Shown: one piece after another, positions 1 through 58,753 of the stretch
Position numbering within the stretch: the first letter of the stretch is position 1
Layout: the number at the start of each line of letters is the position of its first letter
Assembly (NCBI GenBank): GCA_964016885.1
Contig: OZ024741.1
Span: forward strand, 261,640,001-261,704,000
From: Eledone cirrhosa
Taxonomy: Eukaryota
DNA length: 64,000 bases
Direction of reading: 5' to 3'
Program-made: the position numbers and the translations under genes
The notes under the pieces: generated by a model
Databases searched by the model: none
The model's input: only the letters and a program-made list of their open reading frames with translations
Told to the model about the DNA's origin: nothing

Positions 1-1350
1 ACGTCACTTCCCTGAGGATGTCTGTCTGTGTGTGTGTCTGTGAGTTTGAATCCCTAAAATGCGAGAAGTACCCAACCGATTTTTTTCAAACTTTACATGT
101 GTATTACTTATGTTTCAGGGAGTGTTTGTTATGCACATAAAATTCAACCTTTTGATCTGGTGTTTCGACTTACGAGTGTTTCGACTTACGAGTGTTTCGA
201 CTTACGAGTGTTTTGACTTACGAGTGTTTTGACTTACGGTATTTCTGCTTACGAGTGTTTCGACTTACGAGTGTTCTGACCTACGAGTGTTCTGACTTAC
301 GAGTTTTTCGACTTACGAGTGTTTTGACTTACGGGTGTTTCGACTTGCGAGTGTTTCGAGTTACGAGTGTTTCGAGTTACGAGTGTTTCGACTTACGAGT
401 ATTTTGACTTACGAATGTTCTGACTTACGGGTGTTTCGGCTTCCGAGTGTTTCGACTTACGAGTGTTATAACTTGCGGGTCTTTCGATTTACGCGTGTTT
501 TGACTTACGGGCGTTTCGACTTAGGAGTGTTTCGACTACGAATGTTCCGACATACGAGTGTTTCGACTTACGAGTGTTTCGACTTACGAGTGTTCTGACT
601 TACGAGTGTTCCGGCTTACGAGTTTTTCGACTTACGAGTGTTTCGACTTACGAGTGTTTCGACTTACGAGTGTTTCGGCTTACGAGTGGTTTGACTTACG
701 AGTGTTCTGACTACGAGTGTTCTGACTTACGAGTGTTTCGGTTTATGAGTGTTTCGACTTACGAGTGTTTCGGCTTACGAGTGTTTCGACTTACGAGTGT
801 TTCGTCTTACGGGTGTTTCGACTTACGAGTGTTTCGTCTACGAGTGTTTCGACTTACGAGTGTTTCGGCTTACGAGTGTTTCGACATACGGATGTTTCGA
901 CTTACGGTGTTTCGGCTTACGAGTGTTTCGACTTACGAGTGTTCTGACTTACGAGTGTTCTGACTTATGAGTGTTCTGACTTACGAGTGTTCCGACTTAC
1001 GAGTGTTTCGGCTTACGAGTGTTTCGGCTTACGAGTGTTTCGACTTACGAGTGTTTCGACTTACGAGTGTTTCGACTTATGAGTGTTTTGAGTTACGGTG
1101 TTTCGGCTTACGAGTGTTTCGACTTACGAGTGTTTTGACTTACTGGTGTTTTGACATACGAGTGTTTCGATACGAGTGTTTCGACTTACGAGTGTTCTGA
1201 CTTACGAGTGTTCTGACTTACGAGTGTTCTGACTTACGAGTGATCTAACTTACGAGTGTTCTGACTTACGAGTGTTCTGACTTACGAGTGTTCTGACTTA
1301 CGAGTGTTTCGGCTCACGAGTGTTTCGGCTTACGAGTGTTTCGACTTACG

Positions 1351-1428
1351 AAAATAACAAATAGACGCGGTTTCAAATCTCTATGCTTTTCAAATTCAGT
1401 ACATTAATCTTTATTTATACGTTTCGCT
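1351..1428. repeat. ~78-bp AT-rich insert in the satellite; further copies start at 3169, 6182, 13055, 16068 and 23527
   Basis: AAAATAACAAATAGACGCGG...TATACGTTTCGC is nearly identical in all six copies. Confidence 0.95.
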
Positions 1429-4400
1429 TTACGAGTGTTTCGACTTACGAGTGTTTCGACTTACGAGTGTTTCGGCTTACGAGTGTTTTGACTTACGAGT
1501 GTTTTGACTTACATGTTTTTCGACTTACGCGTGTTTCGACTTACGAGTGTTTCGACTTGCGAGTGTTTCGACTACGGGTGTTTCGACTTACGAATGTTTT
1601 GACTTACGGATGTTTTGACTTACGGGTGTTTCGGCTTATGAGTGTTTCGACTTACGAGTGTTCTGACTTACGAGTGTTCTGACTTACGAGTGTTCCGACT
1701 TACGAGTGTTTCGACTTAAGAGTGTTTCGGATTACGAGTGCTTCGACTTACGAGTGTTTCGGCTAACGAGTGTTTCGACTTACGAGTGTTCTGACTACGA
1801 GTGTTCTGACTTACGGGTGTTCTGACTTACGAGTGTTCCGACTTACGAGTGTTCGGCTTTCGAGTGTTTCGACTTACGAGTGTTTCGGGTTACGAGTGTT
1901 TCGACTTACGAATGTTTTCGCTTACGAGTGTTTCCGCTTACGAGTGTTTCGACTTACGAGTGTTTCGACTTACGAGTGTTTTGACTTACGGTTGTTCGGC
2001 TTGCGAGTGTTTCGACATACGAGTGTTTTGACTTACGGGCGTTTCGACCTACGGGTGTTTCGACTTACGAGTGTTTCGACTTACGAGTGTTCTGACTTAC
2101 GAGTGTTCTGACTTGCGAGTGTTCCGACTTACGAGTGTTTCGGCTTACGAGTGTTTCGACTTACGAGTGTTTCGGCTTACGAGTGTTTCGACTTACGAGT
2201 GTTTTGACTTACGAATGTTTTGCCTTACGGGTGTTCCGGTTTACGAGTGTTTCGACTTACGAGTATTCTGACTTACGAGTGTTCCGACTTACGGGTGTTT
2301 CGACTTACGAGTGTTTCGACATACGAGTGTTCCGACCTATGAGGGTTTCGGCTTACTGGTGTTCCGACTTACGAGTATTTTCGGCTGACGAGTGTTTCGA
2401 GTTACGAGTGTTTTGACTTACGATTGTTTCGGCTTACGAGTGGTTTGACTTACGAGTGTTTCGGCTTACGAGTGGTTTGACTTACGAGTGTTCTGACTAC
2501 GAGTGTTCTGACTTACGAGTGTTTCGGCTTATGAGTGTTTCGACTTACGAGTGTTTCGGTTTATGAGTGTTTCGACTTACGAGTGTTTCGGCTTACGAGT
2601 GTTTCGACCTACGAGTGTTTCGACTTACGGGTGTTTCGACTTACGAGTGTTTCGTCTACGAGTGTTTCGACTTACGAGTGTTTCGGCTTACGAGTGTTTC
2701 GACATACGGGTGTTTCGACTTACGGTGTTTCGGCTTACGAGTGTTTCGACTTACGAGTGTTCTGACTTACGAGTGTTCTGACTTATGAGTGTTCTGACTT
2801 ACGAGTGTTCCGACTTACGAGTGTTTCGGCTTACGAGTGTTTCGGCTTACGAGTGTTTCGACTTACGAGTGTTTCGACTTACGAGTGTTTCGACTTATGA
2901 GTGTTTTGACTTACGGTGTTTCGGCTTACGAGTGTTTCGACTTACGAGTGTTTTGACTTACTGGTGTTTTGACATACGAGTGTTTCGATACGAGTGTTTC
3001 GACTTACGAGTGTTCTGACTTACGAGTGTTCTGACTTACGAGTGTTCTGACTTACGAGTGTTCTAACTTACGAGTGTTCTGACTTACGAGTGTTCTGACT
3101 TACGAGTGTTCCAACTTACGAGTGTTTCGGCTCACGAGTGTTTCGGCTTACGAGTGTTTCGACTTACGAAAATAACAAATAGACGCGGTTTCAAATCTCT
3201 ATGCTTTTCAAATTCAGTACATTAATCTTTATTTATACGTTTCGCTTTATGAGTGTTTCGACTTACGAGTGTTTCGACTTACGAGTGTTTCGGCTTACGA
3301 GTGTTTTGACTTACGAGTGTTTTGACTTACATGTGTTTCGACTTACGCGTGTTTCGACTTACGAGTGTTTCGACTTGCGAGTGTTTCGACTACGGGTGTT
3401 TCGACTTACGAATGTTTTGACTTACGGATGTTTTGACTTACGGGTGTTTCGGCTTACGAGTGTTTCGACTTACGAGTGTTCTGACTTACGAGTGTTCTGA
3501 CTTACGAGTGTTCCGACTTACGAGTGTTTCGACTTAAGAGTGTTTCGGATTACGAGTGCTTCGACTTACGAGTGTTTCGGCTAACGAGTGTTTCGACTTA
3601 CGAGTGTTCTGACTACGAGTGTTCTGACTTACGGATGTTCTGACTTACGAGTGTTCCGACTTACGAGTGTTTCGGCTTTCGAGTGTTTCGACTTACGAGT
3701 GTTTCGGGTTACGAGTGTTTCGACATACGAATGTTTTCGCTTACGAGTGTTTCCGCTTACGAGTGTTTCGACTTACGAGTGTTTCGGCTTGCGAGTGTTT
3801 CGACATACGAGTGTTTTGACTTACGGGCGTTTTGACTTACGGGTGTTTCGACTTACGAGTGTTTCCACTTACGAGTGTTCTGACTTACGAGTGTTCTGAC
3901 TTGCGAGTGTTCCGACTTACGAGTGTTTCGGCTTACGAGTGTTTCGACATACGAGTGTTTTGACTTACGGATGTTTCAACTTACGGGTGTTTCGACTTAC
4001 GAGTGTTTCGACTTACGAGTGTTCTGACTACGAGTGTTCTGACTTACGGGTGCTCTGACTTACGAGTGTTTCGACTTACGAGTGTTTCGACTTACGAGTG
4101 TTTCGGCTTACGAGTGTTTCGACTTACGAGTGTTTTGACTTACGAATGTTTTGCCTTACGGGTGTTCCGGTTTACGAGTGTTTCGACTTACGAGTATTCT
4201 GACTTACGAGTGTTCCGACTTACGGATGTTTCGACTTACGAGTGTTTCGACATACGAGTGTTCCGACCTATGAGGGTTTCGGCTTACTGGTGTTCCGACT
4301 TACGAGTATTTTCGGCTGACGAGTGTTTCGAGTTACGAGTGTTTTGACTTACGATTGTTTCGGCTTACGAGTGTTTCGGCTTACGAGTGTTTTGATTTAC

Positions 4401-7400
4401 GAGTGTTTTGACTTACGGGTGTTTCGACTTACGCGTGTTTCGACTTACGAGTGTTTCGACTTACGAGTGTTTCGGCTTATGAGTGTTTCGAATTACGAGT
4501 GTTTTGACTTACGGGTGTTTTGACATACGAGTGTTTCGGTACGAGTGTTCTGACTTACGAGTGTTCTGACTTACGAGTGTTCTGACTTACGAGTGTTCTG
4601 ACTAACGGGGTTCTGACTTACGAGTGTTGCGACTTACGAGTGTTTCGGCTATGAGTGTTTTGACTTACGTGTGTTTCGACTTACGGGTGTTTCGACTTAC
4701 GAGTGTTTCGACTTACGTGTGTTTCCGCTTACGAGTGTTTCGGCTTACGAGTGTTTCGAATTACGAGTGTTTTGGCTTACGAATGTTTTGACTTACGGGT
4801 GTTTCGGTGTACGAGTGTTTCGACTTAAGGATGTTTCGACTTACGAGTGTTTCGACTTACGAGTGTTTCGAGTTACGAGTGTTTCGACTTACGATTGTTT
4901 TGGCTTACGAATGTTTTGACTTACGGGTGTTTCGACTTACGGGTGTTTCGGCTTACGAGTGTTTCGACTTACGAGTGTTTTGACTTACGAGTGTTCTGGC
5001 TTACGAGTGTTCTGACTTACGAGTGTTCCGACTTACGAGTGTTTCGGCTTACGAGTGTTTCGGCTTACGAGTGTTTCGGCTTATGAGTGTTTTGACTTAC
5101 GAGTGTTCTGACTACGAGTGTTCTGACTTACGGGTGTTCTGACTTACGAGTGTTCCGACTTACGAGTGTTTCGGCTAATGAGTGTTTCGACTTACGGGCG
5201 TTTCGACTTACGGGTGTTTCGACTTACGAGTGTTTCGACTTACGGGTGTTTCGACTTACGAGTGTTTTGAATTACGATTGTTTCGGCTTACGAGTGTTTC
5301 GACTTACGAGTATTTCGACTTACGAGTTTTTTTACTTACGGTGTTTCGGCTTACGAGTGTTTCGACTTATGAGTGTTCTGATTTACGGATGTTTCGACAT
5401 ACGAGTGTTTCGACTTACGGTGTTTCGACTTACGAGTGTTTCGACTTACGAGTGTTTCGACTTACGGGTGTTTCGACTTACGAGTGTTTCGACTTACGAG
5501 TGTTTCGACATACGGGTGTTTCGGCTTACGAGTGTTTCGACTTACGAGTGTTCTGACTTACGAGTGTTCCGGCTTACGAGTTTTTCGACTTACGAGTGTT
5601 TCGACTTACGAGTGTTTCGGCTTACAAGTGTTTCGGCTTACGAGTGGTTTGACTTACGAGTGTTCTGACTACGAGTGTTCTGTCTTACGAGTGTTTCGAC
5701 TTACGAGTGTTTCGGCTTATGAGTGTTTCGACTTACGAGTGTTTCGGCTTACGAGTGTTTCGACTTACGAGTGTTTCGACTTACGGGTGTTTCGACTTAC
5801 GAGTGTTTCGACTACGAGTGTTCCGACTTACGAGTGTTTCGGCTTACGAGTGTTTCGGCTTAAGAGTGTTTCGACTTACGAGTGTTTCGACTTACGAGTG
5901 TTTCGACTTATGAGTGTTTTGACTTACGGTGTTTCGGCTTACGAGTGTTTCGACTTACGAGTGTTTTGACTTACTGGTGTTTTGACATACGAGTGTTTCG
6001 ATACGAGTGTTTCGTCTTACGAGTGTTCTGACTTACGAGTGTTCTGACTTACGAGTGTTCTGACTTACGAGTGTTCTAACTTACGAGTGTTCTGACTTAC
6101 GAGTGTTCTGACTTACGAGTGTTCCGACTTACGAGTGTTTCGGCTCACGAGTGTTTCGGCTTACGAGTGTTTCGACTTACGAAAATAACAAATAGACGCG
6201 GTTTCAAATCTCTATGCTTTTCAAATTCAGTACATTAATCTTTATTTATACGTTTCGCTTTACGAGTGTTTCGACTTACGAGTGTTTCGACTTACGAGTG
6301 TTTCGGCTTACGAGTGTTTTGACTTACGAGTGTTTTGACTTACATGTGTTTCGACTTACGCGTGTTTCGACTTACGAGTGTTTCGACTTGCGAGTGTTTC
6401 GACTACGGGTGTTTCGACTTACGAATGTTTTGACTTACGGATGTTTTGACTTACGGGTGTTTCGGCTAACGAGTGTTTCGACTTACGAGTGTTCTGACTA
6501 CGAGTGTTCTGACTTACGGGTGTTCTGACTTACGAGTGTTCCGACTTACGAGTGTTTCGGCTTTCGAGTGTTTCGGCTTACGAGTGTTTCGGGTTACGAG
6601 TGTTTCGACTTACGAATGTTTTCGCTTACGAGTGTTTCCGCTTACGAGTGTTTCGACTTACGAGTGTTTCGACTTACGAGTGTTTTGACTTACGGTTTTT
6701 CGGCTTGCGAGTGTTTCGACATACGAGTGTTTTGACTTACGGGCGTTTCGACTTACGGGTGTTTCGACTTACGAGTGTTTCGACTTACGAGTGTTCTGAC
6801 TTACGAGTGTTCTGACTTGCGAGTGTTCCGACTTACGAGTGTTTCGGCTTACGAGTGTTTCGACATACGAGTGTTTTGACTTACGGATGTTTCAACTTAC
6901 GGGTGTTTCGACTTACGAGTGTTTCGACTTACGAGTGTTCTGACTACGAGTGTTCTGACTTACGGGTGCTCTGACTTACGAGTGTTTCGACTTACGAGTG
7001 TTTCGACTTACGAGTGTTTCGGCTTACGAGTGTTTCGACTTACGAGTGTTTTGACTTACGAATGTTTTGCCTTACGGGTGTTCCGGTTTACGAGTGTTTC
7101 GACTTACGAGTATTCTGACTTACGAGTGTTCCGACTTACGGGTGTTTCGACTTACGAGTGTTTCGACATACGAGTGTTCCGACCTATGAGGGTTTCGGCT
7201 TACTGGTGTTCCGACTTACGAGTATTTTCGGCTGACGAGTGTTTCGAGTTACGAGTGTTTTGACTTACGATTGTTTCGGCTTACGAGTGTTTCGGCTTAC
7301 GAGTGTTTTGATTTACGAGTGTTTTGACTTACGGGTGTTTCGACTTACGCGTGTTTCGACTTACGAGTGTTTCGACTTACGAGTGTTTCGGCTTATGAGT

Positions 7401-10400
7401 GTTTCGAATTACGAGTGTTTTGACTTACGGGTGTTTTGACATACGAGTGTTTCGGTACGAGTGTTCTGACTTACGAGTGTTCTGACTTACGAGTGTTCTG
7501 ACTAACGGGTGTTCTGACTTACGAGTGTTGCGACTTACGAGTGTTTCGGCTATGAGTGTTTTGACTTACGTGTGTTTCGACTTACGGGTGTTTCGACTTA
7601 CGAGTGTTTCGACTTACGTGTGTTTCCGCTTACGAGTGTTTCGGCTTACGAGTGTTTCGAATTACGAGTGTTTTGGCTTACGAATGTTTTGACTTACGGG
7701 TGTTTCGGTGTACGAGTGTTTCGACTTAAGGATGTTTCGACTTACGAGTGTTTTGACTTACGAGTGTTCTGACTTACGAGTGTTCTGACTTACGAGTGTT
7801 CCGACTTACGAGTGTTCCGACTTACGAGTGTTTCGGCTTACGAGTGTTTCGGCTTACGAGTGTTTCGGCTTATGAGTGTTTTGACTTACGAGTGTTCTGA
7901 CTACGAGTGTTCTGACTTACGGGTGTTCTGACTTACGAGTGTTCCGACTTACGAGTGTTTCGGCTAATGAGTGTTTCGACTTACGGGCGTTTCGACTTAC
8001 GGGTGTTTCGACTTACGAGTGTTTCGACTTACGGGTGTTTCGACTTACGAGTGTTTTGAATTACGATTGTTTCGGCTTACGAGTGTTTCGACTTACGAGT
8101 ATTTCGACTTACGAGTTTTTTTACTTACGGTGTTTCGGCTTACGAGTGTTTCGACTTATGAGTGTTCTGATTTACGGATGTTTCGACATACGAGTGTTTT
8201 GACTTACGGTGTTTCGGCTTACGAGTGTTTCGACTTACGAGTGTTTCGACTTACGGGTGTTTCGACTTACGAGTGTTTCGACTTACGAGTGTTTCGACTT
8301 ACGGGTGTTTCGGCTTACGAGTGTTTCGACTTACGAGTGTTCTGACTTACGAGTGTTCCGGCTTACGATTTTTTCGACTTACGAGTGTTTCGACTTACGA
8401 GTGTTTCGGCTTACAAGTGTTTCGGCTTACGAGTGGTTTGACTTACGAGTGTTCTGACTACGAGTGTTCTGTCTTACGAGTGTTTCGACTTACGAGTGTT
8501 TCGGCTTATGAGTGTTTCGACTTACGAGTGTTTCGGCTTACGAGTGTTTCGACTTACGAGTGTTTCGACTTACGGGTGTTTCGACTTACGAGTGTTTCGA
8601 CTACGAGTGTTTCGACTTATGGGTGTTTCGACTTACGAGTGTTTTTACTTACGGTGTTTCGGCTTACGAGTGTTTCGACATACGAGTGTTTTGACTTACG
8701 GGTGTTTCGACTTACGAGTGTTTCGACTTACGAATGTTTTCACTTACGGGTGTTTCGGCTTACGAGTGTTTCGATTTATGAGTGTTTCGGCTTACGAGTG
8801 TTTCGACTTACTAATGTTTTTACTTACGAGTGTTTCGGCGTACGAGAGTTTTGACTTACGAGTGTTTCTACTTACGAGTGTTTCGACTTACGAGTGTTTT
8901 GACTTACGAATGTTTTGACTTACGGGTGTTTCGGCTTACGAGTGTTTCGACTTACGAGTCTTTCGGCTTACGAGTGTTTCGACTTACCAATGTTTTTACT
9001 TACGAGTGTTTCGGCGTACGAGTGTTTCGACTTACGAGTGTTTCGACTTACGGGTGTTTTGACTTACGGGTGTTTCGGCTTACGAGTATTTTTGGCTTAC
9101 GAGTGTTTCGACTTACGAGTGTTTTGACTTACGAGTGTTCTAATTTACGGATGTTTCGACATACGAGTGTTTTGACTTACGAGTGTTTCGACTTACGACT
9201 GTTTCGACTTACGAGTGTTTCGGCTTACGAGTGGTTTGACTTACGAGTGTTCTGACTACGAGTGTTTTGACTTACGAGTGTTTCGGCTTATGAGTGTTTC
9301 GACTTACGAGTGTTTCGGCTTATGAGTGTTTCGACTTACGAGTGTTTCGGTTTACGAGTGTTTCGACTTACGAGTGTTTCGACTTACGGGTGTTTCGACT
9401 TACGAGTGTTTCGACTACGAGTGTTTCGACTTACGAGTGTTTCGGCTTACGAGTGTTTCGACATACGGGTGTTTCGACTTACGATGTTTCGGCTTACGAG
9501 TGTTTCGACTTACGAGTGTTCTGACTTACGAGTGTTCTAATTTACGGATGTTTCGACATACGAGTGTTTTGACTTACGAGTGTTTCGACTTACGAGTGTT
9601 TCGACTTACGAGTGTTCCGACTTACGAGTGTTTCGGCTTACGAGTGTTTCGGCTTACGAGTGTTTCGACTTACGAGTGTTTCGACTTACGAGTGTTTCGA
9701 CTTACGAGTGTTTCGACTTACGAGTGTTTTGAGATACGGTGTTTCGGCTTACGAGTGTTTCGACTTACGAGTGTTTCGACTTACGAGTGTTTTGATATAC
9801 GGTGTTTCGGCTTACGAGTGTTTCGACATACGAGTGTTTTGACTTACGGGTGTTTCGACTTTCGGGTGTTTCGACTTAAGAGTGTTTCGACTTACGAGCG
9901 CTTCGACTTACGAGTGTTCTGACTTACCAGTGTTCCGACTTACGAGTGTTTCTGCTTACGAGTGTTTCGACTTACGAGTGTTTCGACTTACGAGTGTTTC
10001 GGCGTACGAGTGTTTTGACTTACGAGTGTTTCGACTTACGAGTGTTTTGACTTACGAGTGCTTTGACTTACGAATGTTTTGACTTACTTCGACTTACGAG
10101 TGATCTGACTTACGAGTGTTCCTACTTACGAGTGTTTCGACTTACGAGTGTTTCGACTTGCGAGTGTTTCGACTTACGAGTGTTTCGACTTACGAGTGTT
10201 CTGACTTACGAGTGTTCTGACTTACGAGTGTTCCGACTTACGAGTGTTTCGGCTTACGAGTGTTTCGACTTACGAGTGTTCAGGCTTACGCGTCTTTCGA
10301 CATACGAGTTTTTCGGCTTATGAGTGTTTCGACTTACGAGTGCTGCGGCTTACGAGTGTTTCGACTTACGAGTGTTCTGACTTACGAGTGTTCTGACTTA

Positions 10401-11533
10401 CGAATGTTCCGACTTACGAGTCTTTCGACTTACGAATGTTTTGGCTTACGAGTGTTTCGGCTTATGAGTGTTTCGACTTACGAGTGTTTCGACATACGAG
10501 TGTTTTGACTTACGGATGTTTCGACTTACGGGTGTTTCGACTTAAGAGTGTTTCGACTTACGAGCGCTTCGACTCACGAGTGTTCTGACTTACGAGTGTT
10601 CCGACTTACGAGTGTTTCGGCTTACGAGTGTTTCGACTTACGAGTGTTCCGGCTTACGCGTGTTTCGACTTACGAGTGTTTCGGCTTATGAGTGTTTCGA
10701 CTTACGAGTGCTTCGGCTTACGAGTGTTTCGACTTACGAGTGTTTCGGCTTACGAGTGTTTCGACTTACGAATGTTTTGGCTTACGAGTGTTTCGGCTTA
10801 GAGTGTTTCGACTTACGGGTGTTTCGACTTACGGGTGTTCCGACTTAAGAGTGATTCGACTTACGAGCGCTTCGACTTAGGAGTGTTCCGACTTACGAGT
10901 ATTTCTGCTTACGAGTGTTTCGACTTACGAATGTTTCGACTTACGAGTGTTTTGACTTACGGTTGTTTCGGCTTACGACTGTTTCGACTTACGAGTGTTT
11001 CGGCTTACGAATGTTTTGACTTACGAGTATTTCGGCTTACAAGTGTTTCGACGTACGACTGTTTTGACTTACGGTTGTTTCGGCTTACGACTGTTTCGAC
11101 TTACGAGTGTTTCGGCTTACGAGTGTTTCGGCTTACGAGTGTTTCGACTTACGAGTGTTTGGGCTTACGAGTGTTTCAGTGTTTCGGCTTACGTGTGTTT
11201 CGACTTACGAGTGTTTCGATTTACGTGTGTTTCGGCTTACGAGTGTTTCGGCTTACGAGTGTTTCGGCTTATTATATATAAACGTTTCTATTTCCATCGT
11301 TTTATCGTAAACGTTTATATATTTCCATCGTTATATCATAACGTTTATATTTCCGTCACTAATCTCTTTTTCTCCTTTTTCGTTTTAACATATATTTATT
11401 TCAAAGATTTCACCGTATAGATAACATATATATTTATACATGCATAAAAGACACACTGAGAGACGGTGAACATGTGGTGCCAAAAACATTTCTAATCCAA
11501 ATCTCAACAATATCAGTATATACACTAGATTTG

Positions 11534-11570
11534 CTAGCAGAAAACCGCCCACCGGGTGGTTTTCTGCTAG
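11534..11570 (+). terminator. Helitron 3'-terminal hairpin ending in CTAG (copies at 21356-21392 and 27823-27859)
   Basis: Perfect 13-bp inverted repeat plus an inner CCC/GGG stem. Confidence 0.75.
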
Positions 11571-17500: not shown

Positions 17501-20500
17501 TACGTGTGTTTCCGCTTACGAGTGTTTCGGCTTACGAGTGTTTCGAATTACGAGTGTTTTGGCTTACGAATGTTTTGACTTACGGGTGTTTCGGTGTACG
17601 AGTGTTTCGACTTAAGGATGTTTCGACTTACGAGTGTTTTGACTTACGAGTGTTCTGACTTACGAGTGTTCTGACTTACGAGTGTTCCGACTTACGAGTG
17701 TTCCGACTTACGAGTGTTTCGGCTTACGAGTGTTTCGGCTTACGAGTGTTTCGGCTTATGAGTGTTTTGACTTACGAGTGTTCTGACTACGAGTGTTCTG
17801 ACTTACGGGTGTTCTGACTTACGAGTGTTCCGACTTACGAGTGTTTCGGCTAATGAGTGTTTCGACTTACGGGCGTTTCGACTTACGGGTGTTTCGACTT
17901 ACGAGTGTTTCGACTTACGGGTGTTTCGACTTACGAGTGTTTTGAATTACGATTGTTTCGGCTTACGAGTGTTTCGACTTACGAGTATTTCGACTTACGA
18001 GTTTTTTTACTTACGGTGTTTCGGCTTACGAGTGTTTCGACTTATGAGTGTTCTGATTTACGGATGTTTCGACATACGAGTGTTTTGACTTACGGTGTTT
18101 CGGCTTACGAGTGTTTCGACTTACGAGTGTTTCGACTTACGGGTGTTTCGACTTACGAGTGTTTCGACTTACGAGTGTTTCGACTTACGGGTGTTTCGGC
18201 TTACGAGTGTTTCGACTTACGAGTGTTCTGACTTACGAGTGTTCCGGCTTACGATTTTTTCGACTTACGAGTGTTTCGACTTACGAGTGTTTCGGCTTAC
18301 AAGTGTTTCGGCTTACGAGTGGTTTGACTTACGAGTGTTCTGACTACGAGTGTTCTGTCTTACGAGTGTTTCGACTTACGAGTGTTTCGGCTTATGAGTG
18401 TTTCGACTTACGAGTGTTTCGGCTTACGAGTGTTTCGACTTACGAGTGTTTCGACTTACGGGTGTTTCGACTTACGAGTGTTTCGACTACGAGTGTTTCG
18501 ACTTATGGGTGTTTCGACTTACGAGTGTTTTTACTTACGGTGTTTCGGCTTACGAGTGTTTCGACATACGAGTGTTTTGACTTACGGGTGTTTCGACTTA
18601 CGAGTGTTTCGACTTACGAATGTTTTCACTTACGGGTGTTTCGGCTTACGAGTGTTTCGATTTATGAGTGTTTCGGCTTACGAGTGTTTCGACTTACTAA
18701 TGTTTTTACTTACGAGTGTTTCGGCGTACGAGAGTTTTGACTTACGAGTGTTTCTACTTACGAGTGTTTCGACTTACGAGTGTTTTGACTTACGAATGTT
18801 TTGACTTACGGGTGTTTCGGCTTACGAGTGTTTCGACTTACGAGTCTTTCGGCTTACGAGTGTTTCGACTTACCAATGTTTTTACTTACGAGTGTTTCGG
18901 CGTACGAGTGTTTCGACTTACGAGTGTTTCGACTTACGGGTGTTTTGACTTACGGGTGTTTCGGCTTACGAGTATTTTTGGCTTACGAGTGTTTCGACTT
19001 ACGAGTGTTTTGACTTACGAGTGTTCTAATTTACGGATGTTTCGACATACGAGTGTTTTGACTTGCGAGTGTTTCGACTTACGACTGTTTCGACTTACGA
19101 GTGTTTCGGCTTACGAGTGGTTTGACTTACGAGTGTTCTGACTACGAGTGTTTTGACTTACGAGTGTTTCGGCTTATGAGTGTTTCGACTTACGAGTGTT
19201 TCGGCTTATGAGTGTTTCGACTTACGAGTGTTTCGGTTTACGAGTGTTTCGACTTACGAGTGTTTCGACTTACGGGTGTTTCGACTTACGAGTGTTTCGA
19301 CTACGAGTGTTTCGACTTACGAGTGTTTCGGCTTACGAGTGTTTCGACATACGGGTGTTTCGACTTACGATGTTTCGGCTTACGAGTGTTTCGACTTACG
19401 AGTGTTCTGACTTACGAGTGTTCTAATTTACGGATGTTTCGACATACGAGTGTTTTGACTTACGAGTGTTTCGACTTACGAGTGTTTCGACTTACGAGTG
19501 TTCCGACTTACGAGTGTTTCGGCTTACGAGTGTTTCGGCTTACGAGTGTTTCGACTTACGAGTGTTTCGACTTACGAGTGTTTCGACTTACGAGTGTTTC
19601 GACTTACGAGTGTTTTGAGATACGGTGTTTCGGCTTACGAGTGTTTCGACTTACGAGTGTTTCGACTTACGAGTGTTTTGATATACGGTGTTTCGGCTTA
19701 CGAGTGTTTCGACATACGAGTGTTTTGACTTACGGGTGTTTCGACTTTCGGGTGTTTCGACTTAAGAGTGTTTCGACTTACGAGCGCTTCGACTTACGAG
19801 TGTTCTGACTTACCAGTGTTCCGACTTACGAGTGTTTCTGCTTACGAGTGTTTCGACTTACGAGTGTTTCGACTTACGAGTGTTTCGGCGTACGAGTGTT
19901 TTGACTTACGAGTGTTTCGACTTACGAGTGTTTTGACTTACGAGTGCTTTGACTTACGAATGTTTTGACTTACTTCGACTTACGAGTGATCTGACTTACG
20001 AGTGTTCCTACTTACGAGTGTTTCGACTTACGAGTGTTTCGACTTGCGAGTGTTTCGACTTACGAGTGTTTCGACTTACGAGTGTTCTGACTTACGAGTG
20101 TTCTGACTTACGAGTGTTCCGACTTACGAGTGTTTCGGCTTACGAGTGTTTCGACTTACGAGTGCTGCGGCTTACGAGTGTTTCGACTTACGAGTGTTCT
20201 GACTTACGAGTGTTCTGACTTACGAATGTTCCGACTTACGAGTCTTTCGACTTACGAATGTTTTGGCTTACGAGTGTTTCGGCTTATGAGTGTTTCGACT
20301 TACGAGTGTTTCGACATACGAGTGTTTTGACTTACGGATGTTTCGACTTACGGGTGTTTCGACTTAAGAGTGTTTCGACTTCCGAGCGCTTCGACTCACG
20401 AGTGTTCTGACTTACGAGTGTTCCGACTTACGAGTGTTTCGGCTTACGAGTGTTTCGACTTACGAGTGTTCCGGCTTACGCGTGTTTCGACTTACGAGTG

Positions 20501-21392
20501 TTTCGGCTTATGAGTGTTTCGACTTACGAGTGCTTCGGCTTACGAGTGTTTCGACTTACGAGTGTTTCGGCTTACGAGTGTTTCGACTTACGAATGTTTT
20601 GGCTTACGAGTGTTTCGGCTTAGAGTGTTTCGACTTACGGGTGTTTCGACTTACGGGTGTTCCGACTTAAGAGTGATTCGACTTACGAGCGCTTCGACTT
20701 ACGAGTGTTCCGACTTACGAGTATTTCTGCTTACGAGTGTTTCGACTTACGAATGTTTCGACTTACGAGTGTTTTGACTTACGGTTGTTTCGGCTTACGA
20801 CTGTTTCGACTTACGAGTGTTTCGGCTTACGAATGTTTTGACTTACGAGTATTTCGGCTTACAAGTGTTTCGACGTACGACTGTTTTGACTTACGGTTGT
20901 TTCGGCTTACGACTGTTTCGACTTACGAGTGTTTCGGCTTACGAGTGTTTCGGCTTACGAGTGTTTCGACTTACGAGTGTTTGGGCTTACGAGTGTTTCA
21001 GTGTTTCGGCTTACGTGTGTTTCGACTTACGAGTGTTTCGATTTACGTGTGTTTCGGCTTACGAGTGTTTCGGCTTACGAGTGTTTCGGCTTATTATATA
21101 TAAACGTTTCTATTTCCATCGTTTTATCGTAAACGTTTATATATTTCCATCGTTATATCATAACGTTTATATTTCCGTCACTAATCTCTTTTTCTCCTTT
21201 TTCGTTTTAACATATATTTATTTCAAAGATTTCACCGTATAGATAACATATATATTTATACATGCATAAAAGACACACTGAGAGACGGTGAACATGTGGT
21301 GCCAAAAACATTTCTAATCCAAATCTCAACAATATCAGTATATACACTAGATTTGCTAGCAGAAAACCGCCCACCGGGTGGTTTTCTGCTAG
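11571..21392 (+). mobile_element. Non-autonomous Helitron-like unit 2 (9822 bp)
   Basis: Starts TCTATATATATATAAAACTG directly after the previous CTAG and ends in the same hairpin plus CTAG at 21392. Confidence 0.78.
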
Positions 21393-24300
21393 TCTATATA
21401 TATAAAACTGAGGATGTCTGTCTGTGTGTGAGTTTGAATCCCTAAAACTCGAGAACCACCCAACCGACTGTTTTCAAACTTTACACATGTAATACTTACG
21501 TTTCAGGGAGTGTTCTGAGCAAACAATATTTCAAATTTTCAATGCCCTAGGGACCACATTAGGCGATTTAGCGATCTCTCTCTATAATTCTTAGTCTTTC
21601 TCTTTTTAGATAGATACATACATATAACGTCGTGCCCTTATAATATCTGTCTGTATGTCTGGCTGTCTGCATTACGTCACTTCCCTGAGGATGTCTGTCT
21701 GTGTGTGTGTCTGTGAGTTTGAATCCCTAAAATGCGAGAAGTACCCAACCGATTTTTTTCAAACTTTACATGTGTATTACTTATGTTTCAGGGAGTGTTT
21801 GTTATGCACATAAAATTCAACCTTTTGATCTGGTGTTTCGACTTACGAGTGTTACGAGTGTTCTGACTACGAGTGTTTCGACTTACGAGTGTTCTGACCT
21901 ACGAGTGTTCTGACTTACGAGTTTTTCGACTTACGAGTGTTTTGACTTACGGGTGTTTCGACTTGCGAGTGTTTCGAGTTACGAGTGTTTCGAGTTACGA
22001 GTGTTTCTACTTACGAGTATTTTGACTTACGAATGTTCTGACTTACGGGTGTTTCGGCTTCCGAGTGTTTCGACTTACGAGTGTTATAACTTGCGGGTGT
22101 TTCGACTTACGCGTGTTTTGACTTACGGGCGTTTCGACTTAGGAGTGTTTCGACTACGAATGTTCCGACATACGAGTGTTTCGACTTACGAGTGTTTCGA
22201 CTTACGAGTGTTCTGACTTACGAGTGTTCCGACTTACGAGTGTTTCGGCTACGATTGTTTCGACTTACGAGTGTTTCGGTTTACGAGTGTTTCGACTTAC
22301 GAGTGTTTCGACTTACGAGTGTTCCGACTTACGAGTGTTACGACTTACGAGTGTTCCGACTTACTAGTGTTTCGGCTTACGAGTGTTTCGACTTACGGGT
22401 GTTTCGGCTTACGAGTGTTTCGACTTACGAGTGTTTCGACTTACGAGTGTTTTGACATACGGTGTTTCGGCTTACGAGCGTTTCGACATACGAGTGTTTT
22501 GACTTACGGGTGTTTCGACTTAAGAGTTTATCGACTTACGAGCGCTTCGACTTACGAGTGTTCTGACTTACGAGTGTTCCGTCTTACGAGTGTTTCTGCT
22601 TACGAGTGTTTCGACTTACGAGTGTTTCGACTTACGAGTGTTTCGACTTACGAATGTTTCGACTTACGGGTGTTTCGGCTTACGAGTGTTTCGACTTACG
22701 AGTGTTTCGACTTACGAATGTTTCGACTTACGGGTGTTTCGGCTTACAAGTGTTTCGACTTACGAGTGTTCTGACTTACGAGTGTTCTGACTTACGAGTG
22801 TTCCGGCTTACGAGTTTTTCGACTTACGAGTGTTTCGACTTACGAGTGTTTCGACTTACGAGTGTTTCGGCTTACGAGTGGTTTGACTTACGAGTGTTCT
22901 GACTACGAGTGTTCTGACTTACGAGTGTTTCGGCTTATGAGTGTTTCGACTTACGAGTGTTTCGGTTTATGAGTGTTTCGACTCACGAGTGTTTCGGCTT
23001 ACGAGTGTTTCGACTTACGAGTGTTTCGACTTACGGGTGTTTCGACTTACGAGTGTTTCGACTACGAGTGTTTCGACTTACGAGTGTTTCGGCTTACGAG
23101 TGTTTCGACATACGGGTGTTTCGACTTACGGTGTTTCGGCTTACGAGTGTTTCGACTTACGAGTGTTCTGACTTATGAGTGTTCTGACTTACGAGTGTTC
23201 CGACTTACGAGTGTTTCGGCTTACGAGTGTTTCGGCTTACGAGTGTTTCGACTTACGAGTGTTTCGACTTACGAGTGTTTCGACTTACGAGTGTTTCGAC
23301 TTATGAGTGTTTTGACTTACGGTGTTTTGACATACGAGTGTTTCGATACGAGTGTTTCGACTTACGAGTGTTCTGACTTACGAGTGTTCTGACTTACGAG
23401 TGTTCTGACTTACGAGTGTTCTAACTTACGAGTGTTCTGACTTACGAGTGTTCTGACTTACGAGTGTTCCGACTTACGAGTGTTTCGGCTCACGAGTGTT
23501 TCGGCTTACGAGTGTTTCGACTTACGAAAATAACAAATAGACGCGGTTTCAAATCTCTATGCTTTTCAAATTCATTACATTAATCTTTATTTATACGTTT
23601 CGCTTTACGAGTGTTTCGACTTACGAGTGTTTCGACTTACGAGTGTTTCGGCTTACGAGTGTTTTGACTTACGAGTGTTTTGACTTACATGTGTTTCGAC
23701 TTACGCGTGTTTCGACTTACGAGTGTTTCGACTTGCGAGTGTTTCGACTACGGGTGTTTCGACTTACGAAATGTTTTGACTTACGGATGTTTTGACTTAC
23801 GGGTGTTTCGGCTTACGAGTGTTTCGACTTACGAGTGTTTTGACATACGGTGTTTCGGCTTACGAGCGTTTCGACATACGAGTGTTTTGACTTACGGGTG
23901 TTTCGACTTACGGGTGTTTCGACTTAAGAGTGTTTCGACTTACGAGCGCTTCGACTTACGAGTGTTCTGACTTGCGAGTGTTCCGACTTACGAGTGTTTC
24001 GGCTTACGAGTGTTTCGACATACGAGTGTTTTGACTTACGGATGTTTCAACTTACGGGTGTTTCGACTTACGAGTGGTTTGACTTACGAGTGTTCTGACT
24101 ACGAGTGTTCTGTCTTACGAGTGTTTCGACTTACGAGTGTTTCGGCTTATGAGTGTTTCGACTTACGAGTGTTTCGGCTTACGAGTGTTTCGACTTACGA
24201 GTGTTTCGACTTACGGGTGTTTCGACTTACGAGTGTTTCGACTACGAGTGTTTCGACTTACGAGTGTTTCGGCTTACGAGTGTTTCGACTTATGGGTGTT

Positions 24301-27300
24301 TCGACTTACGAGTGTTTTTGCTTACGGTGTTTCGGCTTACGAGTGTTTCGACATACGAGTGTTTTGACTTACGGGTGTTTCGACTTACGAGTGTTTCGAC
24401 TTACGAATGTTTTGACTTACGGTTGTTTCGGCTTACGAGTGTTTCGATTTATGAGTGTTTCGGCTTACGAGTGTTTCGACTTACTAATGTTTTTACTTAC
24501 GAGTGTTTCGGCGTACGAGAGTTTTGACTTACGAGTGTTTCTACTTACGAGTGTTTCGACTTACGAGTGTTTTGACTTACGAATGTTTTGACTTACGGGT
24601 GTTTCGGTTTACGAGTGTTTCGACTTACGAGTCTTTCGGCTTACGAGTGTTTCGACTTACTAATGTTTTTACTTACGAGTGTTTCGGCGTACGAGTGTTT
24701 CGACTTACGAGTGTTTCGACTTACGGGTGTTTTGACTTACGGGTGTTTCGGCTTACGAGTGTTTCGACTTACGAGTGTTTTGACTTAAGGGTGTTTCGAC
24801 TTACGAGTATTTTTGGCTTACGAGTGTTTCGACTTACGAGTGTTTTGACTTACGAGTGTTCTAATTTACGGATGTTTCGACATACGAGTGTTTTGACTTA
24901 CGAGTGTTTCGACTTACGAGTGTTTCGACTTACGAGTGTTTCGGCTTACGAGTGGTTTGACTTACGAGTGTTCTGACTACGAGTGTTTTGACTTACGAGT
25001 GTTTCGGCTTATGAGTGTTTCGACTTACGAGTGTTTCGGCTTATGAGTGTTTCGACTTACGAGTGTTTCGGTTTACGAGTGTTTCGACTTACGAGTGTTT
25101 CGACTTACGGGTGTTTCGACTTACGAGTGTTTTGACTACGAGTGTTTCGACTTACGAGTGTTTCGGCTTACGAGTGTTTCGACATACGGGTGTTTCGACT
25201 TACGATGTTTCGGCTTACGAGTGTTTCGACTTACGAGTGTTCTGACTTACGAGTGTTCTGACTTATGAGTGTTCTGACTTACGAGTGTTCCGACTTACGA
25301 GCGTTTCGGCTTACGAGTGTTTCGGCTTACGAGTGTTTCGACTTACGAGTGTTTCGACTTACGAGTGTTTCGACTTACGAGTGTTTCGACTTACGAGTGT
25401 TTTGACTTACGGTGTTTCGGCTTACGAGTGTTTCGACTTACGAGTGTTTCGACTTACGAGTGTTTTGACATACGGTGTTTCGGCTTACGAGTGTTTCGAC
25501 ATACGAGTGTTTTGACTTACGCGTGTTTCGACTTACGAGTGTTTCGACTTAAGAGTGTTTCGACTTACGAGCGCTTCGACTTACGAGTGTTCTGACTTAC
25601 GAGTGTTCCGACTTACGAGTGTTTCTGCTTACGAGTGTTTCGACTTACGAGTGTTTCGACTTACGAGTGTTTCGGCGTACGAGTGTTTTGACTTACGAGT
25701 GTTTCGACTTACGAGTGTTTCGACTTACGAGTGCTTTGACTTACGAATGTTTTGACTTACTTCGACTTACGAGTGATCTGACTTACGAGTGTTCCTACTT
25801 ACGAGTGTTTCGACTTACGAGTATTTCAACTTGCGAGTGTTTCGACTTACGAGTGTTTCGACTTACGAGTGTTCTGACTTACGAGTGTTCTGACTTACGA
25901 GTGTTACGACTTACGAGTGTTTCGGCTTACGAGTGTTTCGACTTACGAGTGTTCCGGCTTACACGTGTTTCGACTTACGAGTGTTTCGGCTTATGAGTGT
26001 TTCGACTTGCGAGTGTTTCGACTTACGAGTGTTTCGACTTACGAGTGTTCTGACTTACGAGTGTTCTGACTGACGAGTGTTCCGACTTACGAGTGTTTCG
26101 GCTTACGAGTCTTTCGACTTACGAATGTTTTGGCTTACGAGTGTTTCGGCTTATGAGTGTTTCGACTTACGAGTGTTTCGACTTACGAGTGTTTTGACTT
26201 ACGGTTGTTTCGGCTTACGACTGTTTCGACTTACGAGTGTTTCGGCTTACGAATGTTTTGACTTACGAGTATTTCGGCTTACAAGTGTTTCGACTTACGA
26301 CTGTTTTGACTTACGAGTGTTTCGACTTACGAGTGTTTCGACTTACGAGTGTTTCGACTTACGAGTGTTTCGACTTACGAGTGTTCTGACCTACGAGTGT
26401 TCTGACTTACGAGTGTTTCGACTTACGAATGTTTTGACTTACGGGTGTTTCGACTTACGAGTGTTTCGAGTTACGAGTGTTTCGAGTTACGAGTGTTTCG
26501 ACTTACGAGTGTTTTTACTTACGAATGTTCTGACTTACGGGTGTTTCGGCTTACGAGTGTTTCGACTTACGAGTGTTTTAACTTACGGGTGTTTCTACTT
26601 ACGCGTGTTTCGACTTGCAAGTGTTTCGACTTATGAGTGTTTCGACTTGCAAGTGTTTCGACTACGAATGTTCCGACTTACGAGTGTTTCGACTTACAAG
26701 TGTTTCGACTTACGAGTGTTCTGACTTACGGGTGTTCCGACTTACGAGTGTTTCGGCTTACGATTGTTTTGACTTACGATTGTTTTGGCTACGAATGTTT
26801 CGACTTACGAGTGATTCGACTTACGAGTGTTTTGACTTACGGTGTTTCGGCTTACGAGTGTTTCGACTTACGAGTGTTTTGACTTACGGGTGTTTTGACA
26901 TACGAGTGTTTCGATACGAGTGTTCTGACTTACGAGTGTTCTGACTTACGAGTGTTCTGACTTACGAGTGTTCTGACTTACGGGTGTTCTGACTTACGAG
27001 TGTTCCGACTTACGAGTGTTTCGGCTTATGAGGGTTTCGACTTACGAGTGCTTCGGCTTACGAGTGTTTCGACCTACGAGTGTTTCGGCTTACGAGTGTT
27101 TCGACTTACGAATGTTTTGGCTTACGAGTGTTTTGGCTTACGAGTGTTTCGAATTACGAGTGTTTCGACTTACGAGTGTTTTGACTTACGGTGTTTCGGC
27201 TTACGAGTGTTTCGACTTACGAATGTTTTAACTTACGGGTGTTTCGACTTACGCGTGTTTCGACTTACGAATGTTCCGACTTACGAGTGTTTCGACTTAC

Positions 27301-27859
27301 GAGTGTTTCGGCTTATGAGTGTTTCGACTTACGAGTGCTTCGGCTTACGAGTGTTTCGACTTACGAGTGTTTCGGCTTACGAGTGTTTCGACGTACGAAT
27401 GTTTTGGCTTACGAGTGTTTCGGCTTATGAGTGTTTCGACTTACGAGTGTTTCGGCTTACGAGTGTTTCAGTGTTTCGGCTTACGTGTGTTTCGACTTAC
27501 GAGTGTTTCGACTTACGAGTGTTTCGGCTTACGAGTGTTTCGGCTTACGAGTGTTTCGGCTTATATATAAACGTTTCTATTTCCATCGTTTTATCGTAAA
27601 CGTTTATATATTTCCATCGTTATATCATAACGTTTATATTTCCGTCACTAATCTCTTTTTCTCCTTTTCCGTTTTAATATATATTTATTTCAAAGATTTC
27701 ACCGTATAGATAACATATATATTTATACATGCATAAAAGACACACCGAGAAACGGTGAAAATGTGGTGCCAAAAACATTTCTCATCCAAATCTCAACAAT
27801 ATCAGTATATACACTAGATTTGCTAGCAGAAAACCGCCCACCGGGTGGTTTTCTGCTAT
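21393..27859 (+). mobile_element. Non-autonomous Helitron-like unit 3 (6467 bp; terminal CTAG mutated to CTAT)
   Basis: Same 5' TC leader and 3' trailer/hairpin; carries one copy of the 78-bp insert. Confidence 0.75.
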
Positions 27860-28605
27860 TCTATATATATAAAACTGAGGATGTCTGTCTGTGTGTGAGT
27901 TTGAATCCCTAAAACTCGAGAACCACCCAACCGACTGTTTTCAAACTTTACACATGTAATACTTATGTTTCAGGGAGTGTTCTGAGCAAAAAATATTTCA
28001 AAATTTCAATGGCGTAGGGACAACATTAGGCGATTTAGCGATCTCTCTCTATAATTCTTAGTCTTTCTCTTTTTAGATAGATACATACATATAACGTCGT
28101 GCCCTTATAATATCTGTCTGTATGTCTGGCTGTCTGCATTACGTCACTTCCCTGAGGATGTCTGTGTGTGTGTGTGTGTCTGTGAGTTTGAATCCCTAAA
28201 ATGCGAGAAGTACCCAACCGATTTTTTTCAAACTTTACATGTGTATTACTTATGTTTCAGGGAGTGTTTGTTATGCACATAAAATTCAACCTTTTGATCT
28301 GGTGTTTTGAATTACGAGTGTTTCGATACGAGTGTTTCGACTTACGAGTGTTCTGACTTACGAGTGTTCTGACTTACGAGCGTTCTGACTTACGAGTGTT
28401 CCGACTTACGAGTGTTTCGGCTTACGAGTGTTTCGACTAACGAGTGTTTCGGCTTACGAGTGTTTCGACTTACGAGTGTTCTGACTTACGAGTGTTCCGA
28501 CTTACGAGCGTTCCGACTTACGAGTGTTTCGACTTACGAGTGTTAAGACTTACGGGTGTTTTGACATACGAGTGTTTCGATACGAGTGTTTCGACTTACG
28601 AGTGT
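27860..28605 (+). mobile_element. Helitron-like unit 4, 3'-truncated (leader plus ~300 bp satellite)
   Basis: TCTATATATATAAAACTG leader, then satellite 28301-28605, then unrelated sequence. Confidence 0.7.
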
Positions 28606-28689: not shown

Positions 28690-28980
28690 CTCACTCAACA
28701 AACATTAGGAAATATCTGAGTATATGCCGCAGAAGTCTCTCACCACTATATTGTAAGAGTTCTGCATGTATGCCATCCATACCTGGATACCTTCCACTGT
28801 TCAGCTTCGAGATAGCTACTGCAACCTCCCCAAACTTCGGTGGTTCTGCGAGAACTACTTCCACAGGTTTTTCAGGAATGAGATTGAGGAAATCTTCATT
28901 GACGACCGACGGCTGATTCAAAAGTTCATCAAAGTGCTCTCGCCACCTTCACAGAATTCTTTGACGGAGCTTTAGATCAG
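28690..28980 (-). mobile_element. RTE-type LINE fragment (pre-RT linker)
   Basis: WREHFDELLNQP...EVAVAISKLNSGRYPGMDGIHAELLQ. Confidence 0.75.
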
Positions 28981-29199
28981 ACAACACACACTATATTTTT
29001 CGGCGGATAAGTTTTGATTAATTTCTGTATTCTCAAACATCCAAATTTGACAAAATGTTTGCCACACTAGACTCTGCAAATAACCTGACAGAAGTTGTGA
29101 AAGTTAGATAAATAATATTTTTATATATTTTCCCAATGCAATCGTTGTTTAAATACATACATGCATGATGGCTGCAAACTCTGCCAAGAGTATTGCAAT

Positions 29200-34089: not shown

Positions 34090-36874
<2,785 letters not shown>

Positions 36875-40169: not shown

Positions 40170-40453
40170 ACAGAGTTATGATATATTCACAACAAAACGG
40201 TATATGTATATTACACATAGAGGGCGCCATCGGTCACTAATGACCATGGTTTTGCACCTGAAATGTTCCCCGCCGAAGCACAAGACTGGGCAATGTGTGT
40301 TTGTGGAACACCAACAGTCACTCATGCATAGCCCACGCAACCGATGACCTTGCAACTCATTTCTACAGCTGTGAAATAAAGTGCCTTGCTCAAGGACAGA
40401 ACGCATCACCCGGTGTTAAACTCATAACCTCTCAATTGCAAGCTCAACACTCC
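40170..40453 (-). mobile_element. tRNA-derived SINE body; its 5' head lies at 44279-44310, split by the Gypsy insertion
   Basis: GTCCTTGAGCAAGGCACTTTATTTCACA core as in the intact copy at 63137-63475; head GGCGCATGGCTTAGTGG lies beyond the LTR. Confidence 0.75.
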
Positions 40454-41130
40454 ACTAACGGATAGATGGAATTGTTGGTATGATGGTTTCAATGCAAAGA
40501 ATAATACCAGGATTGTGTTGTTACAATGTTTATTTTATTATAACAATATTCAATTTGAATATTGACTGATAAAATCTATAACATGAAATATTCGTACACT
40601 AAGTTGGTGGTTCTTCGAGCCACGTCAGTACAAGTATCACAGAATACGATATAATATAATTTGTATTGTATCTGAAAGATACAATATGACAGACAGAAAT
40701 GGTGCATGTAAAAATGCAAGCAATGTGAACGTGTGTGCGTATTAGTATACTTTCTTGTCTTAGCAGTAGTAGTAATCAATCAGCCATGCGGGAATGGCAT
40801 GTGAGAAATTAGTGGACAGACTGGTTTTTCGTGAAGGGAGTTTGACAGCGTAAGTGAATACCTCCTCTCTTATCTGTAGTACCACATTTTCTGCTGGGCA
40901 TAAACAAATCCTTGTATTTACAACTTCGTTGAAGTTAGAAGGATGGATATATCATGTGACGTCTGGTTAGGGTTGGTCTGCCGGGTGTAAACAACCCTTG
41001 TATCTATAACGGTTGAAGTTAGAAGGGTGGATATATCATCTGACCTCTTTTCTGCCGTGCGTAAACAACCGTCATCTGACCTGTGGTTAGCAGCTCCCAA
41101 GGGGTTGATCTGCCGGGCGCAAACAACCAA

Positions 41131-43544: not shown

Positions 43545-43580
43545 CGTTTGTTGTGGATGATCAGAAGGTTGTTTGTCTGT

Positions 43581-58685: not shown

Positions 58686-58753
<68 letters not shown>

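Follow-up and report, generated by a model that had tools for sequence, protein, structure and literature searches.

In this work, we describe a row of satellite-filled Helitron units at the start of a 64,000-nucleotide stretch of the Eledone cirrhosa genome (assembly GCA_964016885.1, contig OZ024741.1, positions 261,640,001 to 261,704,000 of the forward strand), referred to below as the window. By the features tested, the locus is a non-autonomous Helitron of the HLE1 type with an internal satellite, and it fails the test for a concatemer copied from a single template. To the whole history proposed here we assign a probability of about 0.7: non-autonomous Helitrons came to stand in tandem, their internal 16-bp repeat swelled from a few to hundreds of monomers, and the newest unit was made by unequal exchange, not by transposition. 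An earlier note on this DNA had described the row as a Helitron concatemer; the head-to-tail units stand, while a rolling-circle origin of all three junctions does not, junctions 1 and 2 being one junction duplicated within the satellite.

Layout of the array

A 16-bp tandem repeat fills positions 160-28605 and can be tiled into 1,632 monomers of 199 variants, on average 8.4% off the consensus, a head-to-tail array as long as those of classical satellite DNA. It is interrupted by six copies of a 62-bp non-satellite island and by three spacers of ~730-740 bp. Each spacer consists of a ~300-bp trailer, with a hairpin and a terminal CTAG (CTAT in the third), followed without a gap by a ~440-bp leader starting with TCTATATATA. 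Complete leaders measure 440, 440 and 442 bp, so that the lengths given for both parts in the earlier note hold. Unit lengths are ~11,851 bp for unit 1, whose start is placed by inference 281 bp before the window, 9,822 bp for unit 2, 6,467 bp for unit 3 and 746 bp for unit 4, which stops at 28605 beside debris of a long interspersed nuclear element (LINE), with 304 bp of satellite and no trailer. The 16-mer makes up 92.1, 91.1 and 87.6% of units 1 to 3, in line with the cargo of more than 85% noted before, although neither the truncated unit 4, nor the island, nor the recombinant nature of unit 2 had been mentioned. Right of 28605, the rest of the window contains no 16-mer within two mismatches. 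The features of the row are as follows.

1..159 (+): leader of unit 1, 3' part; 100% identical to leader positions 282-440, its 5' TC lying ~281 bp before the window
160..11271 (+): unit 1 satellite, 689 monomers; duplications of 1.8, 2.9 and 3.0 kb are nested within it
1357-1418, 3175-3237, 6188-6249 (+): 62-bp islands in unit 1, three copies
3049..22772 (+): youngest tandem duplication, in which 3049-12950 recurs as 12935-22772
11272..11570 (+): trailer 1, forming a Helitron 3' end; contains ~31-bp repeats and closes with a hairpin and CTAG
11534..11570 (+): terminal palindrome, 17-bp stem and 3-nt loop, extending to the last base
11571..12010 (+): leader 2, Helitron 5' end with TC start; boundary taken from loose ends in public reads
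12011..21093 (+): unit 2 satellite, 565 monomers, with a unit-3-type head to 12950 and then a unit-1-type tail
12935..12950 (+): crossover of the youngest duplication, 16-bp overlap, placed by the mismatch profile on both diagonals
13061-13123, 16074-16135 (+): 62-bp islands in unit 2, two copies
21094..21392 (+): trailer 2, with the same sequence as trailer 1
21393..21832 (+): leader 3, with the same sequence as leader 2
21833..27560 (+): unit 3 satellite, 358 monomers, with an island at 23533-23594; colinear with unit 1
27561..27859 (+): trailer 3, with a CTAT terminus; differs from trailer 1 by 7 substitutions and a deletion of 3 bp (alignment)
27860..28301 (+): leader 4; differs from leader 2 by 7 substitutions and an insertion of 2 bp (alignment)
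28302..28605 (+): unit 4 satellite, ~19-20 monomers, truncated, without trailer

Origin of the newest unit

Exact-match diagonals show that the youngest duplication, 9.9 kb in length, has copies differing by just 4 substitutions in 9,853 bp (0.04%) and by one 64-bp, four-monomer indel. Because it spans junction 1, junction 2 is a copy of junction 1. Over its initial 1,380 bp, unit 2 is identical to unit 3; beyond that point it matches unit 1, with exact runs as long as 3,497 bp. The register switches from one to the other within the satellite, over the 16-bp overlap at 12935-12950, which is one monomer long. Unit 2 is a hybrid of both neighbours, the head of unit 3 set on the tail of unit 1.

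The same kind of event is recorded at a smaller scale inside unit 1, where nested duplications of 1.8, 3.0 and 2.9 kb, with copies 0.92, 0.62 and 0.38% apart, also have their breaks inside the satellite, and account for the presence of three islands there against one in unit 3. The newest unit likely arose through exchange out of register, one partner monomer lying in unit 1 and the other in unit 3; this mechanism is read from the structure, and a circle made by recombination and re-entering the locus, or a template switch, would leave the same structure. A multimer rolled off one circle would repeat the segment from TC to CTAG, and unit 2 was therefore not produced in this way: the youngest repeat breaks inside the satellite, and the unit is chimeric. 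Nor are the joined segments of one age, the copies of the youngest duplication being 0.04% apart and junctions 1 and 3 ~2%.

Element ends and dispersed copies

The trailer is joined to the leader with no intervening bases, as CTAG|TCTATATATA after 11570 and 21392 and as CTAT|TCTATATATA after 27859. The corresponding 14-nt pattern is matched three times in the window and never in any of 100 shuffles, which bears out the exact 3'-to-5' junctions reported at 11570/11571, 21392/21393 and 27859/27860. HLE1 elements are described, in the available parts of two reports (PMC11417382, PMC4778049), as having a 5' TC, a 3' CTRR, a short 3' hairpin and insertion between A and T. All of these are found here. 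TC stands at 11571, 21393 and 27860; the 3' terminus is CTAG at 11570 and 21392, CTAT, with one substitution, at 27859, and CTGG in one contig of public run X2. The trailer ends in a 17-bp stem (11534-11550 paired with 11554-11570; fold z -7.1, equalled by 0 of 200 shuffles), and 11 nt separate an inner 15-nt hairpin from the 3' end, the spacing given for the Helraiser hairpin in the same partial source (PMC4778049).

Evidence on dispersed copies comes from public sequencing runs aligned to the spacer. Seven of the ten matching runs (X1 to X10) were used, X3 being left out for its share of 0.07, and X5 and X6 as derived from the same sample as X4. Summed contig depth, inflated in branched repeats by overlapping short contigs, was not used as copy number. 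Loose ends fall exactly before 11571 in 129 contigs of X4 (agreement 0.40) and 2,061 reads of X8 (agreement 0.43), and in both runs the consensus of the 5' flank ends in A; a second group, of 44 contigs and 837 reads, breaks at 11573. Depth rises in the 11569-11593 bin in four of four runs. Given this depth step and the loose ends with mixed flanks, an abundant dispersed family has its 5' end at 11571. On the other side, T starts all nine separately resolved 3' flanks after CTAG or CTGG among the rows sampled, four of them sitting at the mirror arm of the palindrome and being read as reverse complements. Insertion between A and T is thus seen one side at a time, each from sampled rows. The junction itself is also spanned in two other organisms, by a single contig in each: by X1 record 1 (11368-11608) and by X2 record 9 (11271-11591), the latter reaching only 21 bases into the leader.

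When the first 60 bp of the leader are compared with the final 120 bp of the trailer, no exact inverted run of at least 7 bp appears, and the best inverted match is equalled by 66 of 1,000 shuffles; a model with terminal inverted repeats (TIRs), or subterminal ones, was rejected for lack of such a match. Helentron, HINE and DINE-1 elements (HLE2) carry subterminal inverted repeats of 12-15 bp and insert into TT (PMC4067079); membership in this group was also discarded, since the element has no such repeats and its 5' flank ends in A, not TT. The ends are canonical HLE1 termini of a dispersed, non-autonomous family, and the earlier description of the spacers as back-to-back Helitron ends is sustained by the TC boundary, the mixed flanks ending in A and the absence of TIRs.

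Some features of the ends are worth recording in their own right. The terminal stem (11534-11570, 21356-21392, 27823-27859) atypically pairs the CTAG end itself, its left arm being an inverted copy of the last 11 nt, and pairing across the junction is weak and TA-rich. The leader carries a second copy of its 5' block (11586-11692 and 11863-11977, ~100-115 bp, 85-87% identical); multiple 5' termini, similar to this repeated block, appear in the accessible parts of reports on other Helitrons (PMC11417382, PMC5148889). Alignments break at 11368 in X1, X7 and X10, and at 11509 in X2 and X8, other subfamilies sharing only the last ~200 or ~60 bp of the trailer; as the sequence upstream differs among them, several interiors use the 3' end of this trailer. 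In one X7 contig (record 16) a TCTATAT-like sequence flanks the terminal palindrome on both sides. Rfam gave no match in 11000-13300. Pattern scans of metagenome contigs for the hairpin and leader motifs, and of viral and prokaryote contigs for a degenerate satellite pattern, gave none either, as expected for an animal repeat, and are evidence neither way.

The satellite within the element

Short copies of the element are found in the public runs, where the island ends 27 bp and 44 bp before the trailer in one X7 contig and 59 X9 reads. Since these copies hold the island near the trailer, the island is part of the element interior. The tract between the two contains ~2-3 monomers in the short copies and 248-314 in the units of the window, the 16-mer count thus varying about 100-fold among copies, and an internal satellite of variable count is what had been predicted. 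The satellite likely swelled inside the element: this is observed for the island-to-trailer tract, and we infer it for the element as a whole.

A source of the 16-mer was sought in the element itself. Derivation from the leader is not supported, the two sharing an 11-bp exact match with a score equalled by 34 of 500 shuffles; nor is derivation from the trailer or the island, where 474 and 359 of 500 shuffles, respectively, score equally.

Probable founder units and the first junction

Alignment shows units 1 and 3 to be colinear, with identity in 203 of 275 monomer pairs; three controls with shuffled order gave 66-69 of 115-141. The two units are ~2% apart by monomer-level alignment, a lower figure of 0.94% being biased downwards as it comes from blocks seeded by exact 40-mers, and 14 substitutions and 2 indels separate their junctions (1 and 3) over ~740 bp. 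Trailers 1 and 3 share an A at 11482, where G is found in 3,993 of 4,313 depth in X4, in 130 of 130 reads in X9 and in 66 of 66 in X10; leaders 2 and 4 share A at 11734 and T at 11811, against 92-96% of X4 depth. Colinearity and shared minority variants indicate that the units derive from one founder, or from a narrow subfamily, which already contained several kb of satellite.

We propose that a founder with ~5 kb of satellite gave rise to units 1, 3 and 4, now ~1-2% apart. The first seamless CTAG|TC junction would require the RepHel enzyme, supplied in trans. Later growth would have occurred by out-of-register exchange, through the nested 1.8-, 3.0- and 2.9-kb duplications and finally through the 9.9-kb one across a junction, and unit 4 may have lost its 3' part beside the LINE debris. 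The Helitron ends at this locus are now probably passengers of satellite-type turnover, and no host function is implied.

As to the first junction, we give even odds to a rolling-circle multimer. Helraiser circles carry precise CTAG|TC joins, according to the portion of the report available (PMC4778049), and tandem Helitron arrays have been cited in support of rolling-circle transposition (PMC5876387), which makes a multimer plausible for units 1, 3 and 4. Insertion of a second copy at the A|TC site formed by the 5' end of an existing one is a less probable route, and other routes are less probable again. The junction alone cannot separate a concatemer from a second insertion, because the 5' boundary of an inserted copy should itself be an A|T site, if the A|T rule (PMC4778049, seen in part) applies. 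Target site duplications (TSDs) are of no help in making this distinction, since Helitrons leave none.

A more specific form of the second route, which we put forward as a tentative and rather doubtful idea, is that the family prefers a target copying its own 5' end, A|TCTATATA..., so that new copies land directly before old ones and form seamless dimers without any concatemer. Eight of the nine resolved 3' flanks start with TC, including four of the five that were not selected for a match to the leader, and pooled X4 rows, from 66 and 41 contigs, give TCTATATATA as the consensus of the 3' flank. In one X7 contig the 3' end of the trailer is joined to a different leader-like sequence, and in 837 X8 reads a different hairpin-like sequence precedes the leader, with a consensus agreement of only 0.53. 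Against self-targeting stand the small sample of flanks, the X7 contig with a TCTATAT-like sequence on either side of the palindrome, and the fact that TA-rich flanks are expected for Helitrons; Helraiser prefers AT-rich DNA on the 3' side, as stated in the part of the report at hand (PMC4778049). Self-targeted dimers, including mixed-family ones, would then become satellite arrays by unequal exchange in the internal 16-mer. Among the papers listed in a literature search, none was found to state such self-targeting by Helitrons. If it were true, exact CTAG|TC junctions in genomes would be no evidence of rolling-circle multimers, and if the bias of the 3' flank holds genome-wide, the family would allow double insertion to be tested against rolling-circle multimers in Helitrons.

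Alternative explanations

The most direct alternative is that all units were produced by rolling-circle replication of one satellite-laden circle and inserted as a concatemer. The exact CTAG|TC joins, matching those of Helraiser circles (PMC4778049, in the part available), and the use of tandem Helitrons as evidence of rolling-circle transposition (PMC5876387) speak for it, and a single birth of units 1, 3 and 4 fits their shared minority variants and their distances of ~1-2%. It founders on unit 2, which joins the head of unit 3 to the tail of unit 1, is 0.04% from both and has its break inside the satellite, and on unit lengths that differ through nested duplications not of one age. A concatemer is refuted for junctions 1 and 2, and it can hold only for the founding units, as units 1, 3 and 4 could be coeval; as an account of the whole row we regard it as improbable.

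The structure of unit 2 might, on the other hand, be an artefact. Long satellites are difficult to assemble, and the copies of the 9.9-kb duplication are 99.96% identical, as would be expected if the assembly had jumped back within the satellite, or placed two haplotypes in tandem, at a true locus of three units and two junctions. The copies do differ, however, by four substitutions and a four-monomer indel, an exact overlap of 16 bp seems short for an overlap-based join, and the older nested duplications, at 0.4-0.9%, show that the same process is real at this locus. We consider such a mis-join improbable as well.

Finally, the 16-mer could be an independent genomic satellite, to which Helitron ends became attached by capture or by recombination with standalone arrays. 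In X4 the summed depth is ~7.5 million on the 16-mer and ~5,000 at the join of satellite and trailer. Along the leader, depth falls from ~250,000 in its body to 2,490 where it meets the satellite, so that most leader copies would carry other interiors; mixed forms have also been described in the oyster (PMC12628747, available in part). Such depths, however, being sums over overlapping short contigs, are inflated and do not give copy number. There are short copies in which 2-3 monomers separate island and trailer, and in the spacer a 3' end runs into a 5' end, unlike the structure of an element inserted into a satellite. The present explanation, which differs from swelling within the element mainly in the source of the first monomers, is the one to which we give least credit.

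Several observations weigh against the history preferred here, namely tandem Helitrons with an internally swollen satellite and a newest unit made by unequal exchange. The left end of the array is outside the window and the right end is lost. The crossover at 12935-12950 is known from the assembled sequence alone. The head of unit 4 does not follow that of unit 3, and units 1, 3 and 4 are roughly equally distant (~1-2%), two facts that agree with a single concatemeric birth no less than with serial events. The public runs are made of short contigs and restriction-site-associated DNA (RAD) reads, hold at most 82% of the spacer words and may come from relatives, not from the same species, which also weakens the argument for one founder; flanks were read from a sample of 24 of 648 and 24 of 111 loose-end rows. 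The short copies are seen as island-to-trailer fragments, not as complete elements, and the 59 X9 reads may represent one locus. In addition, the trailer of a RepHel-derived element at 46176-47543, described below, does not align with the satellite trailer (score 27, best shuffle 35).

Relation to known systems

The locus is known as a kind: Helitrons carrying satellites of such size and Helitrons in tandem have both been published, and the earlier note had mentioned Helitron-borne satellites and Helitron concatemers in other taxa. Among the papers listed in a literature search, none dealt with a Helitron-borne satellite in cephalopods. Most comparisons below rest on portions of the cited reports and are limited to these.

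The closest parallel is found in Crassostrea gigas, where Cg_HINE and CgiSat01 hold tandem repeats between Helitron-type ends (PMC7492417, PMC8268682, PMC12628747). As in Eledone, monomer counts vary between conserved ends, and tandemised and recombined forms are described. Cg_HINE elements, however, derive from Helentrons, and their monomers average 140-180 bp, with mostly no more than 5 per array, while the Eledone units have HLE1 ends (TC...CTAG), a 16-bp monomer present in 358-689 copies per unit, and whole units arranged head to tail. The size of the cargo is not exceptional: an element-associated CgiSat01 array has 89 monomers (PMC8268682), ~15 kb by our own scaling from 232 monomers in ~40 kb.

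In Xenopus laevis, minisatellites fill most of the Heli2Xen insertions (Heli2Xen, Heli1Xen1; PMC12001565). The family rich in minisatellites belongs to HLE2; its 166-bp unit is repeated 2-7 times over 121-1,996 nt, far below the 6-12-kb units seen here. The centromeric holo-units of Meloidogyne (PMC13404089) resemble the Eledone row in that tandem-repeat arrays alternate with non-autonomous HLE1-like spacers, in blocks of tens to hundreds of kb; these are centromeric, with monomers of 40-90 bp, arrays of up to 2 kb and Helitron features within the spacers. In the Eledone spacer, instead, a 3' end is joined directly to a 5' end.

Shorter satellites, with monomers of 11-40 bp, are spread by Helitrons in Caenorhabditis elegans (PMC4595182), and the DINE-TRs of Drosophila (PMC10783647) are Helitron-derived tandem repeats that take up large genome shares. 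Both cases are similar in this respect; the available text of these accounts does not include head-to-tail, multi-kb, satellite-filled units with a mapped crossover. Hydractinia subtelomeres are a looser case of a satellite linked to Helitrons. Head-to-tail Helitron junctions as such are shared with Helitron-1_DPe on the Y chromosome of D. pseudoobscura (10.1101/2021.06.02.446622) and, according to papers that cite it, with the plant tandem Helitrons of Xiong et al. 2016, and tandem Helitrons have also been reported in fungi.

The history proposed here follows the two-stage model of McGurk and Barbash (bioRxiv 10.1101/158386), in which tandem dimers of transposable elements are formed first and then expanded by unequal exchange. 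These authors use the TSD at the junction to separate double insertion from rolling circles, a sign that Helitrons do not make, and the word Helitron is absent from the part of their text available. In Eledone, unlike in their cases, homology is provided by a satellite inside the element, and the variants of this satellite allow each step to be dated.

The value of the locus lies in its readability, monomer variants serving as a barcode by which the steps leading from a short internal repeat to an array of more than 28 kb can be ordered. The row likely illustrates clearly how satellite DNA can form by a route already known, unequal exchange. Rolling-circle copying is not the step that made its newest head-to-tail junction, and this calls for caution in studies that count CTAG|TC junctions as concatemers.

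Neighbouring elements

The element at 46176-47543 (+) is a 1.37-kb deletion derivative of a RepHel Helitron, with an A|TC start and, by eye, a hairpin-like end at GATAG|T. Its broken frame (46652-47149) is 54% identical over 135 amino acids to a PIF1-helicase protein, P0001, the one match among 262 candidates in a search for longer homologues; the 119-residue RepHel fragment had no Pfam match, and a search for homologues of similar length found none. The 5' part of the element aligns with leader positions 257-386 with a score of 56, against 40.5 for the best of 200 shuffles. Judged from its sequence, the element appears to be a relative of the satellite Helitron, not its autonomous partner.

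Adjoining the truncated unit 4, a decayed endonuclease/reverse-transcriptase LINE, which we take to be RTE-like, lies at 28691-31907 (-), with a second fragment at 28691-28948; Pfam gave a weak endonuclease match only. Positions 32711-36212 contain a 1.38-kb inverted pair (32711-34090 and 36212-34830, 96% identical), with frames presumably related to Penelope-type GIY-YIG ends; the frame at 34062-34553 had no Pfam match. The remains left by an LTR (long terminal repeat) retrotransposon extend over ~40400-44200 (-), with an RVT_1 domain at 41741-42364 (E 6.5e-30) and ~480-bp direct repeats at 40653-41131 and 43692-44195. A 26-bp minisatellite of 30 copies with 94% matches is located at 50977-51766. 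A Penelope-like element with a 1.55-kb direct repeat, 94% identical, occupies 54843-59755, and its 526-amino-acid frame (55549-57126, -) matches RVT_1 and, weakly, GIY-YIG.

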